64,000 nt of DNA from Nitrosopumilus sp. (GCA_965197525.1 OZ240211.1:608001-672000); one strand, 5' to 3'. Positions 6,101 to 35,984 are shown, numbered from the stretch's first letter. Numbers and translations: made by a program. The notes: generated by a model from the sequence alone, not told the origin.

Positions 6101-6215
6101 AAAAAAACTGATTTTACTTGAATGTTTTAAAGGTTTACACGTGAATTTTGGGGATTATATACATGGGTATACTTGGTTCGGTTCTGTTAACTTTCGAGGG
6201 GTAATCTAACTTTGA

Positions 6216-7039: not shown

Positions 7040-7125
7040 GACAGGATTGCTTAGCAAGGTTAAAGCGACAGATTCAGAATCTGTGTCTCTCGCCGAGATC
7101 GTGGGTTCGAATCCCACTCCTGTCG
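7040..7125 (+). tRNA. Class II tRNA with anticodon CAG (nominally tRNA-Leu), atypical G73 and A37
   Basis: Cloverleaf: acceptor GACAGGA/TCCTGTC, D-stem GCTT/AAGC, anticodon stem ACAGA/TCTGT with loop TTCAGAA, 16-nt variable arm, T arm GTGGG-TTCGAAT-CCCAC, discriminator G. Confidence 0.9.
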
Positions 7126-7174
7126 CTACTTTTGATTCTTTTTGTGTTATATTAATTTTTGAGGTGTCAGCGAT

Positions 7175-8176
7175 ATGAATGCAAGACAGACAAGAGGTCA
7201 GATCAGTATGAGATATATGAATAAAAACAAGAAAGACACACAAGCACCAAGTAAATCATTTAGAAAAGGCATCACATTGATGGAATTATTCAGGATGTTT
7301 CCTGATAATGATACTGCAGAGAAATGGTTTGAGTCTAGAATATGGAAAGATGGCAGAAGGTGCCCTACCTGTAATAACCCAGACACAAAAGAGGCAAAAC
7401 ATCCAAAGATGCCTTATCGGTGTTATGTTTGTCACAGTTATTTCAGTGTTAAAAAAGGGACTGTCATGGAACAGTCAAAAATATCATATCAGCATTGGGC
7501 TATAGCTACCTATCTTTTTGCCGTAAATCTAAAGGGTGTGTCATCTATGAAGATACATAGAGACCTAGGAATAACACAAAAATCAGCTTGGTTCTTGGTT
7601 CATCGTTTAAGAGAATCATGGAAAATGTTGGCAGGAGTTGACTCTATGACTGGTCCAGTTGAAATAGATGAGGTATACCTGGGAGGCAAAGAAAAAAATA
7701 AACACGCAGACAAAAAACAGTCCAAAGGTCAAGGTGGTAAAAACATGACTGCAGTAATCGGAATAAAAGACAGAGCAACTAACAAAATATCTGCTCAACC
7801 AGTACCAGAGACAACCAGAGCCAGACTAGAGAATTTTGTAGAATCCAAGACGACACAAACTGTTACAAAGTACACTGATGAGAATCCAGCTTATAGTGAA
7901 CTGTCAAATCACGAATCTGTGAGGCATTCTGTAGGTGAATATGTCAGAGGACAAGCCCATATCAACGGACTTGAATCATTCTGGTCAATGGTCAGACGTG
8001 GATATGACGGCATATACCATCACATTTCAGAAGATCATCTGCACCGATACATCAACGAGTTCGCAGGACGTCACAACGTCAGAAGCATGGACACAATAGA
8101 CATGATGAGTGAGGTAGCAGAGAACATGATAGGGCATAGATTAACCTACAAGGACTTGATAGGTCAGGGGATTTGA
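7175..8176 (+). CDS. IS1595-family DDE transposase
   Basis: N-terminal Zn ribbon (CPTC...CYVC), HTH, then VEIDEVYLGG, YTDENPAY, HINGLESFWS and HLHRYINEF.GRHN. The D-D-E triad appears intact. Confidence 0.92.
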   Translation: MNARQTRGQISMRYMNKNKKDTQAPSKSFRKGITLMELFRMFPDNDTAEKWFESRIWKDGRRCPTCNNPDTKEAKHPKMPYRCYVCHSYFSVKKGTVMEQSKISYQHWAIATYLFAVNLKGVSSMKIHRDLGITQKSAWFLVHRLRESWKMLAGVDSMTGPVEIDEVYLGGKEKNKHADKKQSKGQGGKNMTAVIGIKDRATNKISAQPVPETTRARLENFVESKTTQTVTKYTDENPAYSELSNHESVRHSVGEYVRGQAHINGLESFWSMVRRGYDGIYHHISEDHLHRYINEFAGRHNVRSMDTIDMMSEVAENMIGHRLTYKDLIGQGI

Positions 8177-8697: not shown

Positions 8698-10028
8698 GGT
8701 TCTGTTGGGTTAACGGGTGTTGACTGCTGAGGATCATGTCAGATTCCACAACCATCAACAACACATTGACTACTCGACTTTGACATATCGACTATTCGGA
8801 TTACCGGTCTGCAGGGTTCCGCCATCGCCGGTTCAAAAACACCGGACTGCGCTTCATGTATGCCATCTCTACTATCTCTAAACCTAGGAGACAGTTTGCG
8901 TGATATGTTCATGGCAGCGATAATATCCCTGTCCATAAACAAACCGCAATTATTACACGATGATTTACGATGTTGTTGCATGTCCTCTTGGAGTCTCTTT
9001 CCGCATTGCGGACACTGCGTGCTCGTGTTTTTTGGGTCTACTGTTTTTACAGGTAGCCCGACCCATTGGGCTTTGTATTCTATTTGTCTTTGTAGTTCAA
9101 AGAATTGCCATCCGTTCAATCTACGTCTGTATTTGTTGCCTTGACCGTTTCCTTTTCCGTACAGTTTTCTAATTCCCTTTAGATTTTCTAGAACAATGAC
9201 AGCCTTTTTCTTGACTGCATTGTCTACTATGTTTTTTGAGATTCTATGTATGTACTGTTTTGTCCTGTTTGACATTCTTCTCTGTTTTTCTTTGTAGAAT
9301 TGACCTTTCTTTCTTTTGTTGTTTCTACGGAAACTGGATCTGGCATGTATTGTGTTCTCTTTGATTGAGAGTAACTTGTTGGTTTTGTAGAATGTTACCT
9401 CTTCTTCATTTCCGCATGTGACGTTTCTAAGGTTTCTGTCTACTCCCACTGTCTTGGTGCACTCTATCTCCTGTACTTTTTTTGAAATACAAAGACTGAT
9501 GTTGAGAGCAGTCAATGAAAACGAGCGCACTGTCACGGTGGGATCAGACAGTATTTTTTGAGTATGTTCGTTGAGCAGGATGTTAATTGGATTTCTTGGC
9601 TTGTATGGAATTGTGAGTAAGGCGCCGTTGTGTTTTATACGGTAACAATTAGTGATAAACGGATTTTTGATAATTGGATCTTTTACTTTGAGGCCACGTT
9701 TGACTGACTGATCTCTGTTTGCCAGGATGCCCGCAGCTCGTGATATTGCATTGAGTTTGTATGAAGATAGGATGTCATAGTGACGTAATTCGTGATAGCA
9801 TAGCATAGACAACCGTTTCATGTTGTGGGTATCTTCCTTTAGCCCATCTTGATACAACGGTTAACCATGTCTGTGAACGTGATCATCATATCCATTAGGT
9901 CAGAGTTTGGTGTATGTTTTTGTGCTATTGACTTTATTGCTCTCAACAAGTATTGTACGGTTTAAGGTTATCTATATTTAGTGTTATGGGTATAATTTCT
10001 GATCAACACCCGTTAACCCAACAGAACC
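8698..10028 (-). mobile_element. TIR-bounded tnpB element, copy 1 (1331 bp)
   Basis: Perfect 26-bp TIR GGTTCTGTTGGGTTAACGGGTGTTGA at 8698-8723, with its reverse complement at 10003-10028. Nearly identical to 27341-28672. No 8-bp TSD. Confidence 0.92.
8739..9949 (-). pseudogene. tnpB: tnpB, frameshifted near codon 35
   Basis: Relative to copy 2 (agccctatct) one T is missing at 9845/9846 (agcccatct), giving an early stop. The downstream 372-aa frame retains the RuvC and Zn-finger motifs. Confidence 0.85.
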
Positions 10029-26885: not shown

Positions 26886-27340
26886 AATCTGTATTCGTTG
26901 ACCATGTTTAAAACAGTTTAATATAAAACGATGTTTTGGGAATAATGATTAATTTATAACATTGATTCAAAATACATCAATCATCAAAATTCATGCCGTT
27001 TAGAACATGATAATTAGTTAAGAGAAAGAATAACCGCAGATAGTGTATTTTTTGTAATAGTATAACATATCACGGCGATGTAAGATTTTGGGTTTTAGAT
27101 AGGATCTCAGATGATCAGAAAGAGAGATGTCTGCTAACAAAAATAACTGGTTGGATGTTCTTCCATAGTTTGCCATAATTTACAAGTGCCAAAATGACGC
27201 AACAGATACAAAATAGATGTAATTCAAATCTACAAGATGCAAGTATTTCAATCACACAATTCCGGTAGATTACCACGTGAGGAGATGATCAGGGTACTGA
27301 GAAGCAACGAGCGATAAACAACACAATATCGTAGATTAAG

Positions 27341-28672
27341 GGTTCTGTTGGGCTAACGGGTGTTGACTGCGGAGGATCATGTCAGATTCCACAACCATCA
27401 ACAACACATTGACTACTCGACTTTGACATATCGACTATTCGGATTACCGGTCTGCAGGGTTCCGCCATCGCCGGTTCAAAAACACCGGACTGCGCTTCAT
27501 GTATGCCATCTCTACTATCTCTAAACCTAGGAGACAGTTTGCGTGATATGTTCATGGCAGCGATGATATCCCTGTCCATAAACAAACCGCAATTATTACA
27601 CGATGATTTACGATGTTGTTGCATGTCCTCTTGGAGTCTCTTTCCGCATTGCGGACACTGCGTGCTCGTGTTTTTTGGGTCTACTGTTTTTACAGGTAGC
27701 CCGACCCATTGGGCTTTGTATTCTATTTGTCTTTGTAGTTCAAAGAATTGCCATCCGTTCAATCTACGTCTGTATTTGTTGCCTTGACCGTTTCCTTTTC
27801 CGTACAGTTTTCTAATTCCCTTTAGATTTTCTAGAACAATGACAGCCTTTTTCTTGACTGCATTGTCTACTATGTTTTTTGAGATTCTGTGTATGTACTG
27901 TTTTGTTCTGTTTGACATTCTTCTCTGTTTTTCTTTGTAGAATTGACCTTTCTTTCTTTTGTCGTTTCTACGGAAACCAGATCTGGCATGTATTGTGTTC
28001 TCTTTGATTGAGAGTAACTTGTTGGTTTTGTAGAATGTTACCTCTTCTTCATTTCCGCATGTGACGTTTCTAAGGTTTCTGTCTACTCCTACTGTCTTGG
28101 CGCACTCTATCTCCTGTACTTTTTTTGAAATACAAAGACTGATGTTGAGAGCAGTCAATGAAAACGAGCGCACTGCCAAGGCGGGATCCGACAGTATTTT
28201 TTGAGTATGTTCGTTGAGTAGGATGTTAATTGGATTTCTTGGCTTGTATGGAATTGTGAGTAAGGCGCCGTTGTGTTTTATACGGTAACAATTAGTGATA
28301 AACGGATTTTTGATAATTGGATCTTTTACTTTGAGGCCACGTTTGACTGACTGATCTCTGTTTGCCAGGATGCCAGCAGCTCGTGATATTGCATTGAGTT
28401 TGTATGAAGATAGGATGTCGTAGTGACGTAATTCGTGATAGCATAACATAGACAACCGTTTCATGTTGTGGGTATCTTCCTTTAGCCCTATCTTGATACA
28501 ACGGTTAACCATGTCTGTGAACGTGATCATCATGTCCATTAGGTCAGAGTTTGGTGTATGTTTTTGTGCTATTGACTTTATTGCTCTCAACAAGTATTGT
28601 ACGGTTTAAGGTTATCTATATTTAGTGTTATGGGTATAATTTCTGATCAACACCCGTTAACCCAACAGAACC
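27341..28672 (-). mobile_element. TIR-bounded tnpB element, copy 2 (1332 bp), with 8-bp TSD
   Basis: 26-bp TIRs at 27341-27366 and 28647-28672 (1 mismatch). AGATTAAG lies immediately on both sides (27333-27340 and 28673-28680). Confidence 0.95.
27382..28593 (-). CDS. tnpB: TnpB RNA-guided endonuclease, full length
   Basis: RuvC-I VGVDRN, RuvC-II VLENL, Zn finger TSTQCPQCG...CNNCG, RuvC-III DRDIIAAMNI. Confidence 0.95.
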   Translation of the reverse strand: MLRAIKSIAQKHTPNSDLMDMMITFTDMVNRCIKIGLKEDTHNMKRLSMLCYHELRHYDILSSYKLNAISRAAGILANRDQSVKRGLKVKDPIIKNPFITNCYRIKHNGALLTIPYKPRNPINILLNEHTQKILSDPALAVRSFSLTALNISLCISKKVQEIECAKTVGVDRNLRNVTCGNEEEVTFYKTNKLLSIKENTIHARSGFRRNDKRKKGQFYKEKQRRMSNRTKQYIHRISKNIVDNAVKKKAVIVLENLKGIRKLYGKGNGQGNKYRRRLNGWQFFELQRQIEYKAQWVGLPVKTVDPKNTSTQCPQCGKRLQEDMQQHRKSSCNNCGLFMDRDIIAAMNISRKLSPRFRDSRDGIHEAQSGVFEPAMAEPCRPVIRIVDMSKSSSQCVVDGCGI

Positions 28673-28717
28673 AGATTAAGTATCTTTTAATATCCAAATT
28701 CAGCCTCTAGTATTATT

Positions 28718-34423: not shown

Positions 34424-34535
34424 TAGTATTAGTTTGTTTTTATTTAAAAACGTTGTCAGGGATGGTTCTGTGAAGTTATCGAGGGTTATCTGTTAATCCC
34501 TAAATTGTATAAACCTCTAAACCGTAAGATATTCG

Positions 34536-35729
34536 TTGAAAGCGATAAAGTCATTATCACAGAAATATACGCCGAACTCTGATCTAATGGATATGATGGC
34601 TATATTCACAAAGATGGTCAATCATTGCATCAAGACAGGATTGAAAGAAGACACTCACAATATGAAGAGGTTGTCCATGTTATGTTATCATGAATTACGT
34701 AATTATGACATCCTGTCTTCATACAAACTAAATGCAATATCACGAGCTGCAGGCATGTTATCAAACAGAAAACAATCAATCAAACGAGGTGTCAGAATAA
34801 GAGACCCAATAGTCAAAAATCCCTTTATGACAAACTGTTACGGTATACAACACAGCGGTGCACTATTAACAATCCCATACAAGAAACATAACCCAATCAA
34901 CATTTTACTCAACGTTCACACCCAAAAAATCCTATCTGATCCCGCCTTGACGGTGCGTTCGTTTTCATTGACTGCTCTGAACATCAGTCTTTGTGTTTCA
35001 AAAACAGTACAAGAGATAGAGTGCACCAATCAAGTGGGAATAGACAGAAACCTAAGAAATGTGACGTGTGGGAACAAGCAAGAGGTGACAGTCTACAAGA
35101 CAAACAAACTGTTATCCATAAAGGAGAACACAATACACGCCAGGGCAGGCTTCCACAGAAATGATCGCAGAAAGAAAGGTCAATTCTGGAAACAAAGACA
35201 GAGACGAATGAGCAATAGAACAAAGCAGTACATCCACAGAATCTCAAAGGATATAGTAGACAACGCAGTCAAAAACAAGACTGCAATCGTCATGGAAAAC
35301 CTGAAAGGAATAAGAAAATTGTACCGAAAAGGAAACAGTCAAGGTAACAAGTACAGGCGTAGATTGAACGGGTGGCAATTCTACGAGTTACAACGCCAAA
35401 TAGAATACAAAGCCCAATGGGTCGGGTTGCCTCCAGTCGAGACAGTAGACCCAAGAAACACGAGCACGCAGTGTCCGCAATGCGGAAAGAGACTCCAAGA
35501 GGACATGCAACAACATCGTAAAATGTCGTGTAATAATTGCGGTTTGTTTATGGACAGGGATATTATCGCTGCCATGAACATATCACGCAAGCTGCCCCCT
35601 AGGTTTAGGGGTAGTAGAGATGACATAGATGAAGCGCAGTCCGGCACTTTTGAGCAGGCGATGACGGAACCCGGCACACCATTGGTAATCCGAATAGTCG
35701 ATATGTCAAAGTCAAGTTATAGGGGTTAA
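34536..35729 (+). CDS. tnpB: TnpB RNA-guided endonuclease, full length
   Basis: VGIDRN, VMENL, TSTQCPQCG...CNNCG and DRDIIAAMNI. Homologous to 27382-28593. Confidence 0.95.
   Translation: MKAIKSLSQKYTPNSDLMDMMAIFTKMVNHCIKTGLKEDTHNMKRLSMLCYHELRNYDILSSYKLNAISRAAGMLSNRKQSIKRGVRIRDPIVKNPFMTNCYGIQHSGALLTIPYKKHNPINILLNVHTQKILSDPALTVRSFSLTALNISLCVSKTVQEIECTNQVGIDRNLRNVTCGNKQEVTVYKTNKLLSIKENTIHARAGFHRNDRRKKGQFWKQRQRRMSNRTKQYIHRISKDIVDNAVKNKTAIVMENLKGIRKLYRKGNSQGNKYRRRLNGWQFYELQRQIEYKAQWVGLPPVETVDPRNTSTQCPQCGKRLQEDMQQHRKMSCNNCGLFMDRDIIAAMNISRKLPPRFRGSRDDIDEAQSGTFEQAMTEPGTPLVIRIVDMSKSSYRG
35592..35714 (+). ncRNA. Putative TnpB omega-RNA scaffold overlapping the tnpB 3' end (also at about 8772-8894 and 27415-27537 on the minus strand)
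   Basis: Stem CTGCCCCCT-AGGTTT-AGGGGTAG versus CTGTCTCCT-AGGTTT-AGAGATAG in copies 1/2 shows two compensatory pair swaps. omega-RNAs are known to overlap tnpB 3' ends. Exact RNA ends unknown. Confidence 0.55.
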
Positions 35730-35984
35730 CCCTCGATAACTTCACAGAACCGGGAATAGAGATGTCATAATTAACCGTATAAAATAATCGGCATGCCTAA
35801 AGAAAGACAAGTCTACAATCTGATTATAACAGGCATAAAATACAAAAGGCGAGTATACCATATTTGAACCACATTAATCTAAATAACGTATGTGTCACCA
35901 CGCACAAGTTGAATATTTTATTGTATCATACGTACAAGCTACGAAAATATCATTTTTATGTAAATAAGTCCTGAGAAGAACAAG

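Follow-up and report, generated by a model that had tools for sequence, protein, structure and literature searches.

The described systems closest to the elements reported here are DDE-type transposons that carry a TnpB. Six DDE-associated TnpB branches (DDE-1 to DDE-6) have been defined in which the gene lies between inverted ends, and the accessible text of the same survey also describes solo TnpBs with the same ends (Altae-Tran 2023; PMC10691335). According to a 2026 review, prokaryotic DDE transposons seldom carry OMEGA modules, owing to inflexible TAM recognition. Members of the IS6 family are characterized by 8-bp direct repeats, short near-perfect inverted repeats, GG tips and a cTGTt motif (PMC7986276); typically they are 700-900 bp long and hold one gene, with one recorded case of a passenger gene (PMC7986276). 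The role of TnpB for transposons beyond IS605 and IS607 is an open question, and it is touched by a family that we describe here from a 64,000-nucleotide stretch of Nitrosopumilus sp. DNA (GCA_965197525.1, OZ240211.1:608001-672000; hereafter the window). This is probably a non-autonomous family with IS6-type ends that carries a complete OMEGA module (tnpB plus omegaRNA), is moved in trans and has a one-sided W-T-R triplet as its TAM.

The window element and its family

Copy 1 of the element spans 1332 bp (27341-28672) and contains a single gene, an intact tnpB. Its terminal inverted repeats (TIRs) are 26 bp long, match at 25 of 26 positions and can be written GGTTCTGTTGGG(C/T)TAACGGGTGTTGA. 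At the end downstream of tnpB (RE; 27341-27366, minus strand) the TIR reads GGTTCTGTTGGGCTAACGGGTGTTGA, with the IS6-type tip GGTTCTGT, and at the end upstream of tnpB (LE; 28647-28672, plus strand) it is the same sequence with T for C at position 13, the listed strand reading ...ACAGAACC. With up to three mismatches, the TIR 26-mer occurs four times in the window as against none in 100 shuffles. Both flanks carry an exact AGATTAAG, at 27333-27340 on the RE side and at 28673-28680 on the LE side, which constitutes an 8-bp target-site duplication (TSD). Directly 5' of the LE-side TSD, in the orientation of tnpB, lies a TAM-like ATA (28681-28683, minus strand; TAT on the plus strand).

The sole long open reading frame of copy 1 (27382-28593, minus strand) encodes 403 residues that match the Pfam model Cas12f1-like_TNB (1.4e-21) and are similar in sequence to solved TnpB/Cas12f structures. 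The RuvC D/E/D residues and the zinc finger are all intact, with GVDRN in RuvC-I, LENL in RuvC-II, DRDIIAAMN in RuvC-III and a CxxC...CxxC finger formed by CPQCG and CNNCG. A predicted omegaRNA scaffold, located by an nhmmer match and folded with RNAalifold on an alignment, covers the 3' end of the gene (27417-27546, minus strand), and a variable spacer, here of about 50 nt, separates it from the RE TIR.

The window holds two further copies. Copy 2 (8698-10028, minus strand) belongs to the same subfamily, with 19 substitutions and one indel relative to copy 1. It has perfect TIRs and TTG on the LE side, its tnpB is frameshifted by this indel, a 1-nt deletion, and its flanks (TTAACAGG / GGCGACTG) show no TSD. 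Copy 3 (34464-35751, plus strand) represents a second subfamily, with 84% amino acid and ~78% DNA identity to copy 1. Its 25-bp TIRs are perfect, have only the tip GGTTCTGT in common with those of copy 1 and differ in their inner part; the stop codon of its tnpB falls within the RE TIR, TTG stands on the LE side, and the flanks (TCAGGGAT / GGGAATAG) form no clean TSD. A duplication is thus visible in only one of the three window copies. These observations bear out the preliminary description of this DNA, which had reported an intact tnpB alone between 26-bp TIRs, the 8-bp duplication around it, a near-identical copy at 8698-10028 with about 20 differences and a related copy at 34464-35751.

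The genome is a single contig of 2.21 Mb with 39.6% G+C and is 99% complete. We scanned it for GGTTCTGT...ACAGAACC pairs and then examined the flanks for a TSD, a tabulation that the preliminary description had proposed. The scan returned 29 elements with GGTTCTGT ends and an exact 8-bp TSD, and since all 29 8-mers are different, the duplication is genuine rather than a product of chance. The genome contains 45 tnpB matches, ~31 of them with uninterrupted frames, and a profile of the omegaRNA region finds 51 modules, for 44 of which both ends could be identified; within 2.2 Mb, these numbers agree with the earlier suggestion that the family is spreading. The TIRs, perfect over 25-26 bp, co-vary from subfamily to subfamily, and in no copy does a tnpB element contain a transposase gene. 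Miniature derivatives of 208-497 bp are also present, which keep both ends and the scaffold and have lost the remainder; what they retain of tnpB is its last ~40-115 codons (38-114 aligned residues), corresponding to the RNA region.

Absence of a TSD from other copies had been named as an observation that would speak against a DDE element. Of the elements with an omegaRNA module, 26 have an exact 8-bp TSD, each a different one; of 44 copies, 19 have none that is exact, two of these missing it by one base. A search of 60 genomes of the genus with the left-flank DNA yielded no orthologue of the empty site, and the exact 24-nt junction predicted for it is absent from the metagenome contigs searched, so the TSD call rests on the 29 independent duplications. 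A flank-swap test for IS6-type inversions gave one distant complementary pair only (TTTATTTT / AAAATAAA), which is AT-rich and probably due to chance. In a scan of one genome per species, tnpB within IS6-type TIRs was also found in Nitrosotalea, Nitrososphaerales, Bathyarchaeia and Asgard.

The candidate transposase

Transposase genes occur in four larger elements that share the tips of the family (G000:746475-748444, 1956395-1960520, 583727-588872 and 699962-703151), and two of the four have an exact 8-bp TSD. Two of these genes occupy G000:746963-748096 and 700020-701120. The transposases of these partner elements (L001, L002, L003 and L004) match PF13610, DDE_Tnp_IS240, with 42-53 bits (cut-off 27), this being the Pfam model for IS6-family transposases. 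One of them also has an N-terminal match to a SWIM zinc finger, and a fragment ORF of another gives a weak match below threshold; of 121 genomes sampled from the family, 48 have a transposase of the SWIM plus DDE_Tnp_IS240 type. The ends agree to different degrees. The autonomous element at 746475-748444 and one tnpB subfamily (e.g. 724290 and 838811) have the initial 18 nt of the TIR in common, and for the TIR subclass of the window (TTGGGTTAACG) the closest autonomous TIR matches at only 19 of 26 positions. In all subfamilies, GGTTCTGT(T/G/C) is found at both ends.

Measured against the IS6 family, the elements have 8-bp direct repeats (copy 1, the 29 elements genome-wide and further cases in other genomes) and short inverted repeats with GG tips and cTGTt at both ends in all subfamilies. 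A DDE_Tnp_IS240 gene of their own is carried only by the partners L001-L004 and is missing from the window element, which encodes TnpB alone and is hence a non-autonomous derivative rather than a canonical IS6 member. At ~125 tnpB loci in this and other genomes there is no IS6-type transposase gene within 1.5 kb of tnpB, and an element holding both tnpB and a transposase was not found; we therefore infer mobilization in trans from the shared ends alone. On present evidence, the best-supported candidate for the mover of the tnpB elements is an IS6-type DDE transposase acting in trans. Of the earlier proposal of a non-autonomous DDE element with tnpB as cargo, the TIRs, the TSD and the tnpB-only cargo stand, and the assignment to the IS1595 family is not supported.

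That assignment had taken TIRs plus an 8-bp TSD as the signature of IS1595 and had named the gene at 7175-8176 as a possible helper. IS1595 elements likewise give 8-bp TSDs, and the gene at 7175-8176 is truly of IS1595 type (PF12762, 5e-33) and lies 0.5 kb from copy 2. However, neither a GGTTCTGT TIR pair nor any other convincing TIR was found around it, and the IS1595-type genes of the genome amount to one intact copy, one relative with 25% identity and one fragment. Every element that combines these tips and TSDs with a transposase gene encodes DDE_Tnp_IS240, and the tip motif agrees with the published IS6 consensus (PMC7986276). It is therefore very improbable that the family consists of non-autonomous IS1595 elements that depend on the ISXO2-like transposase of 7175-8176 for their movement, and both the tips and the partner transposases point to IS6.

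Elements with tnpB as their only gene are usually classed with IS200/IS605 (IS1341 group), whose members typically have such a TAM-like motif on the LE side. If the family were an ordinary member of that group, moved by a Y1 or serine TnpA, its TIRs and flanking repeats would have to be incidental. This is hardly credible given that the 25-26-bp perfect TIRs co-vary among subfamilies and that 26 exact and differing 8-bp duplications lie between the motif and the element end. Moreover, neither Y1 (PF01797) nor serine recombinase (PF00239) found a match in the 99%-complete genome, whereas control genomes were matched. The locus thus departs from IS200/IS605 (IS1341 group) and IS607, which have neither TIRs nor TSDs and use a Y1 or serine TnpA, and the preliminary description was right to set them aside.

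The one-sided motif, the omegaRNA and target choice

The elements with a TSD were oriented by tnpB or by the RNA module before the triplet next to the duplication was counted. Directly 5' of the LE-side TSD, W-T-R is present in 26 of 26 cases, as TTA (10), TTG (10), ATA (3) and ATG (3). At the mirror position on the RE side it occurs in 2 of 26, against a genome background of 8.8%. Among the copies that lack an exact TSD, which include copies 2 and 3 of the window, T-R stands at -2/-1 on the LE side in 13 of 19 and the full W-T-R in 12 of 19. Transposase-bearing elements with a TSD (six elements from this and other genomes) have W-T-R on 0 of 12 sides.

Other genomes give a similar picture. 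TSD-bearing insertions of same-clade TnpBs in three of them have TTG, ATA, TTA, ATG and TTG, and a more distant TnpB (L048) has ATG, so that together the motif is found at six of six insertions. Over 12 loci with an exact TSD from Nitrosotalea, Bathyarchaeia, Asgard and others, it is present in 10, the triplets recorded being TTG (7), TTA, GTG, ATG, TTC and TGA. Insertions of a separate TnpB clade (33% identity) instead show TAT, in three of three cases.

Two other explanations of flanking triplets were considered and rejected. W-T-R does not represent start codons or a tnpB promoter, as half the cases are TTA or ATA and the LE has its own TATA-like box. The (A/T)CC that precedes the TSDs of autonomous elements in other genomes is not a target motif; it is the tip of a resident IS6-type end exactly 8 bp away.

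W-T-R is located where a TAM would be, provided that the guide begins with the base directly outside the RE. In the simplest reading, it is the putative TAM of TnpB, and each copy may recognize its own unoccupied allele. That the motif tracks the TnpB clade, is one-sided despite identical TIRs and is missing from transposase-bearing elements points to TnpB, rather than the transposase, as its likely determinant; since autonomous elements lack W-T-R, the transposase alone fails to explain the adjacency. The preliminary description had held that insertion at a fixed TAM-like motif would count against a DDE element. These elements do have such a motif on one side, yet between it and the element stands a genuine and variable 8-bp TSD, and this placement supports the DDE reading instead of refuting it.

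A second possible source of the bias is the transposase itself. The elements would be mobilized in trans by a dedicated IS6-type transposase with an asymmetric preference for W-T-R, with which the TAM has co-evolved, and TnpB would have no role in site choice. For IS605 and IS607, it is accepted that the transposase target and the TAM have co-evolved (PMC13565253), and DDE transposases may have target preferences. We nevertheless consider this account unlikely for the present family, because W-T-R is missing on 12 of 12 sides of elements bearing the same type of transposase and because the motif varies by TnpB clade on the same kind of ends (WTR versus TAT). In addition, the TIRs have the same sequence over 25 nt at LE and RE, which leaves a bound transposase without obvious means to distinguish the two sides.

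The RNA component was examined by aligning the final 230 nt of 12 elements drawn from five genomes. The conserved block terminates in ...AATAGTCGATATGTCAAAGTC, and between it and the RE TIR lies a spacer of varying length (8-75 nt). Of 23 pairs predicted by RNAalifold, 13 have compensatory changes, and the pairs include a hairpin and a long-range stem of 7 bp each, so the block looks like an omegaRNA scaffold overlapping the 3' end of tnpB. Rfam gave no match for this region. Two hallmarks of an OMEGA module are found at the locus, namely a TnpB with RuvC D/E/D and zinc finger and a structured RNA at the 3' end of its gene. The predicted omegaRNA is unusual in that the 8-75 nt spacer and the 26-nt TIR come between scaffold and presumed guide.

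From the position of scaffold and RE and from the one-sided W-T-R, we deduce a candidate guide template at 27321-27340 (minus strand, CTTAATCTACGATATTGTGT), which would comprise the 8-bp TSD and the next 12 nt of flank. A guide within the RE TIR or the internal spacer (with a scaffold ending AAAGTC) was considered and set aside, the motif being placed for a guide that runs from the first base outside the RE. Contigs of two sponge metatranscriptome runs lie mainly over 27415-27790, the omegaRNA region; they come from a random-PCR library in which ends and strand are unreadable. They offer a weak hint of expression, as they give no RNA ends and DNA depth is also highest there, the miniature copies containing the region.

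In the proposed mechanism, SWIM plus DDE_Tnp_IS240 transposases would act in trans both on the tnpB elements and on the miniatures that hold only the omegaRNA, and would insert them through an 8-bp staggered cut. The omegaRNA would be transcribed outward through the RE TIR, with a guide consisting of the TSD and the downstream flank, and the one-sided W-T-R 5' of the LE-side TSD would serve as the TAM. An unoccupied allele, in which TAM, TSD and flank are contiguous, would then be a perfect TnpB target; TnpB would cut the empty site, and repair would then copy the element into it (homing or retention), as for IS605 and IS607. IS6-family transposition is described as replicative, passing through a cointegrate and leaving no empty donor site. 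The usual rationale of restorative homing is therefore not obviously applicable, which makes the adjacency more puzzling. The share of copies without an exact TSD (43%) is compatible with a cointegrate mechanism and is not diagnostic of it.

How the adjacency arises can be read in two further ways. Insertion could be random, and only those insertions next to a TAM would persist, being able to spread by drive into empty alleles or to eliminate revertants. Such survivorship would fit the homing and gene-drive roles already known for TnpB and would make new biochemistry unnecessary, but we regard it as doubtful. A filter would hardly yield 26 of 26 among many near-identical and evidently recent copies, a one-off twofold gain in transmission would be insufficient to remove the insertions without the motif, expected to make up ~91% of all, and the replicative IS6 mechanism provides no empty donor site.

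Alternatively, and tentatively, it is possible that TnpB, with or without the omegaRNA, helps the IS6-type DDE transposase to choose its target, with recognition of the TAM opening the adjacent 8 bp that become the TSD. Nascent RNA at the RE could hold TnpB on the element, and both the position and the orientation of the insertion would be set by TnpB. If true, this would be natural nuclease-assisted DDE transposition outside CRISPR-associated transposons, and each new copy would be guaranteed to recognize its own empty site.

As the clean insertions all lie beside a TAM-like motif and in a single orientation, the dependence of the site bias on TnpB and omegaRNA is testable. Should it depend on them, RNA-guided nucleases would sway DDE target choice outside CRISPR-associated transposons. 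Should it be independent of TnpB, the family would provide a clear case of transposase/TAM co-evolution or of gene drive.

Comparison with known systems

The preliminary description had left it undecided whether this architecture was already on record. In part it is, as TnpB within DDE-type inverted ends and solo copies moved in trans appear in the accessible text of PMC10691335. Full-text literature searches for TnpB with the IS6 family returned nothing on such elements, and those for TnpB with Nitrosopumilus returned nothing; nor did we find a paper that names an IS6 partner for TnpB or a TAM outside a random 8-bp TSD. By this measure, DDE-associated TnpBs are known already, and what appears to be new is an IS6-type partner that is always in trans, a random 8-bp TSD and a TAM-like motif outside it. 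This IS6-like DDE carrier, always served by a transposase in trans, reaches high copy number in one genome and is distributed widely across several archaeal phyla. Since the transposase is never beside tnpB, surveys of gene neighbourhoods miss TnpB carriers of this kind.

Like the DDE-branch TnpBs, as far as the accessible text of PMC10691335 describes them, the family has tnpB between TIRs, a tnpB 3' end near one transposon end and solo copies presumed to be moved in trans. The partners named for those branches in the accessible text are IS630, ISL2 and IS1031 (PMC10691335, PMC13565253), whereas here the partner is IS6. Unlike the DDE-branch loci, none of ~125 tnpB loci has an IS6-type transposase within 1.5 kb, and the ends are those of elements that carry only a transposase.

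With IS6/IS26 the elements have in common the 8-bp TSD, short near-perfect inverted repeats, GG tips, the CTGT motif, DDE_Tnp_IS240 partners and miniature derivatives. They differ from typical IS6 in that the partners are 2-5 kb long, with a SWIM transposase and cargo, and in that the abundant form has tnpB instead of a transposase. The IS1595 family is alike in its 8-bp TSD and DDE transposase and differs in transposase type and tip sequence.

The resemblance to the IS1341 group and ISDra2 lies in the OMEGA module, comprising a typical TnpB (DRDxN in RuvC-III), an omegaRNA over the 3' end of the gene, a presumed guide in the flank and a TAM-like motif on the LE side. The IS1341 group, however, lacks TIRs and TSDs and is moved by a Y1 TnpA, whereas TIRs and TSDs are present here, no Y1 gene was found in the genome and the motif is set off from the element end by the 8-bp duplication. 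Fanzors in eukaryotic DDE transposons provide a further parallel, being TnpB homologues on elements with TIRs and TSDs. In Fanzors the 5' TSD (e.g. TA or TTAA) is part of the TAM and the 3' TSD lies in the scaffold (PMC13565253), whereas the TSD of the present family is random in sequence and would form the first 8 nt of the target.

Lineage-specific tnpB expansion and a second TnpB clade

The expansion of tnpB is lineage-specific: the genome from which the window comes (G000) contains 45 tnpB matches, whereas each of the other genomes sampled from the genus has between 0 and 5. Public sequencing runs that contain the window include sponge metagenome among their labels, which would fit an expansion of insertion sequences in a host-associated lineage.

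A second TnpB clade, represented by two loci in one other genome (L020 and L022 in G021) and one locus in another (L039 in G151), is also found inside IS6-type terminal inverted repeats (TIRs) with 8-bp target-site duplications (TSDs). Its proteins are 33% identical to the TnpB of the window, and the duplication at the end upstream of tnpB is preceded in all three cases by TAT rather than by the TAM-like motif WTR.

Large IS6-type elements with cargo

Two larger IS6-type loci are present in G000. The first, a 3.19-kb element (L004; G000:699962-703151), carries as cargo, beyond its SWIM-DDE transposase, an N6/N4 DNA methylase and an HNH endonuclease, and its right end is duplicated, with the copies 59 bp apart. 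The second is a 5.1-kb stretch between identical 26-bp IS6-type TIRs (L003; G000:583727-588872), without a TSD, that contains an IS6-type transposase gene together with an rve-type integrase gene, of which the genome holds two further copies (94-95% identical).

Start region of the IS1595-type transposase gene

The IS1595-type transposase gene of the window (7175-8176) adjoins tRNA-Leu. Its leader and first ~80 codons (window 7098-7404) are 91% identical to a fragment within a 1454-bp IS6-ended element with the TSD TATTTTTC (G000:1394563-1396016), where the fragment is joined directly to the omegaRNA scaffold. Moreover, the ~100 nt around the start of the IS1595-type gene match the corresponding regions of three IS6-type transposase genes at 78-91% identity. 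Together, these sequence identities suggest that a promoter/leader module is shared, or that transposase genes have recombined. A solo IS6-type end (GGTTCTGTTAACTTTCGAGGGGTAATCT) lies at window 6180-6207, and no partner for it was found nearby.

Autonomous elements beside resident ends

In other genomes of the family, four autonomous IS6-type elements with exact TSDs (L073, L074, L076 and L069) each have a resident IS6-type end as neighbour, its tip at a distance of exactly 8 bp. The 8-mer that was duplicated is therefore the immediate flank of the resident element. Several of these loci have a ...TATGGTACGGTAC...TTATAAG sequence nearby in common. Their placement recalls IS26, which one published account describes as preferring to insert adjoining another IS26 (PMC4196232).
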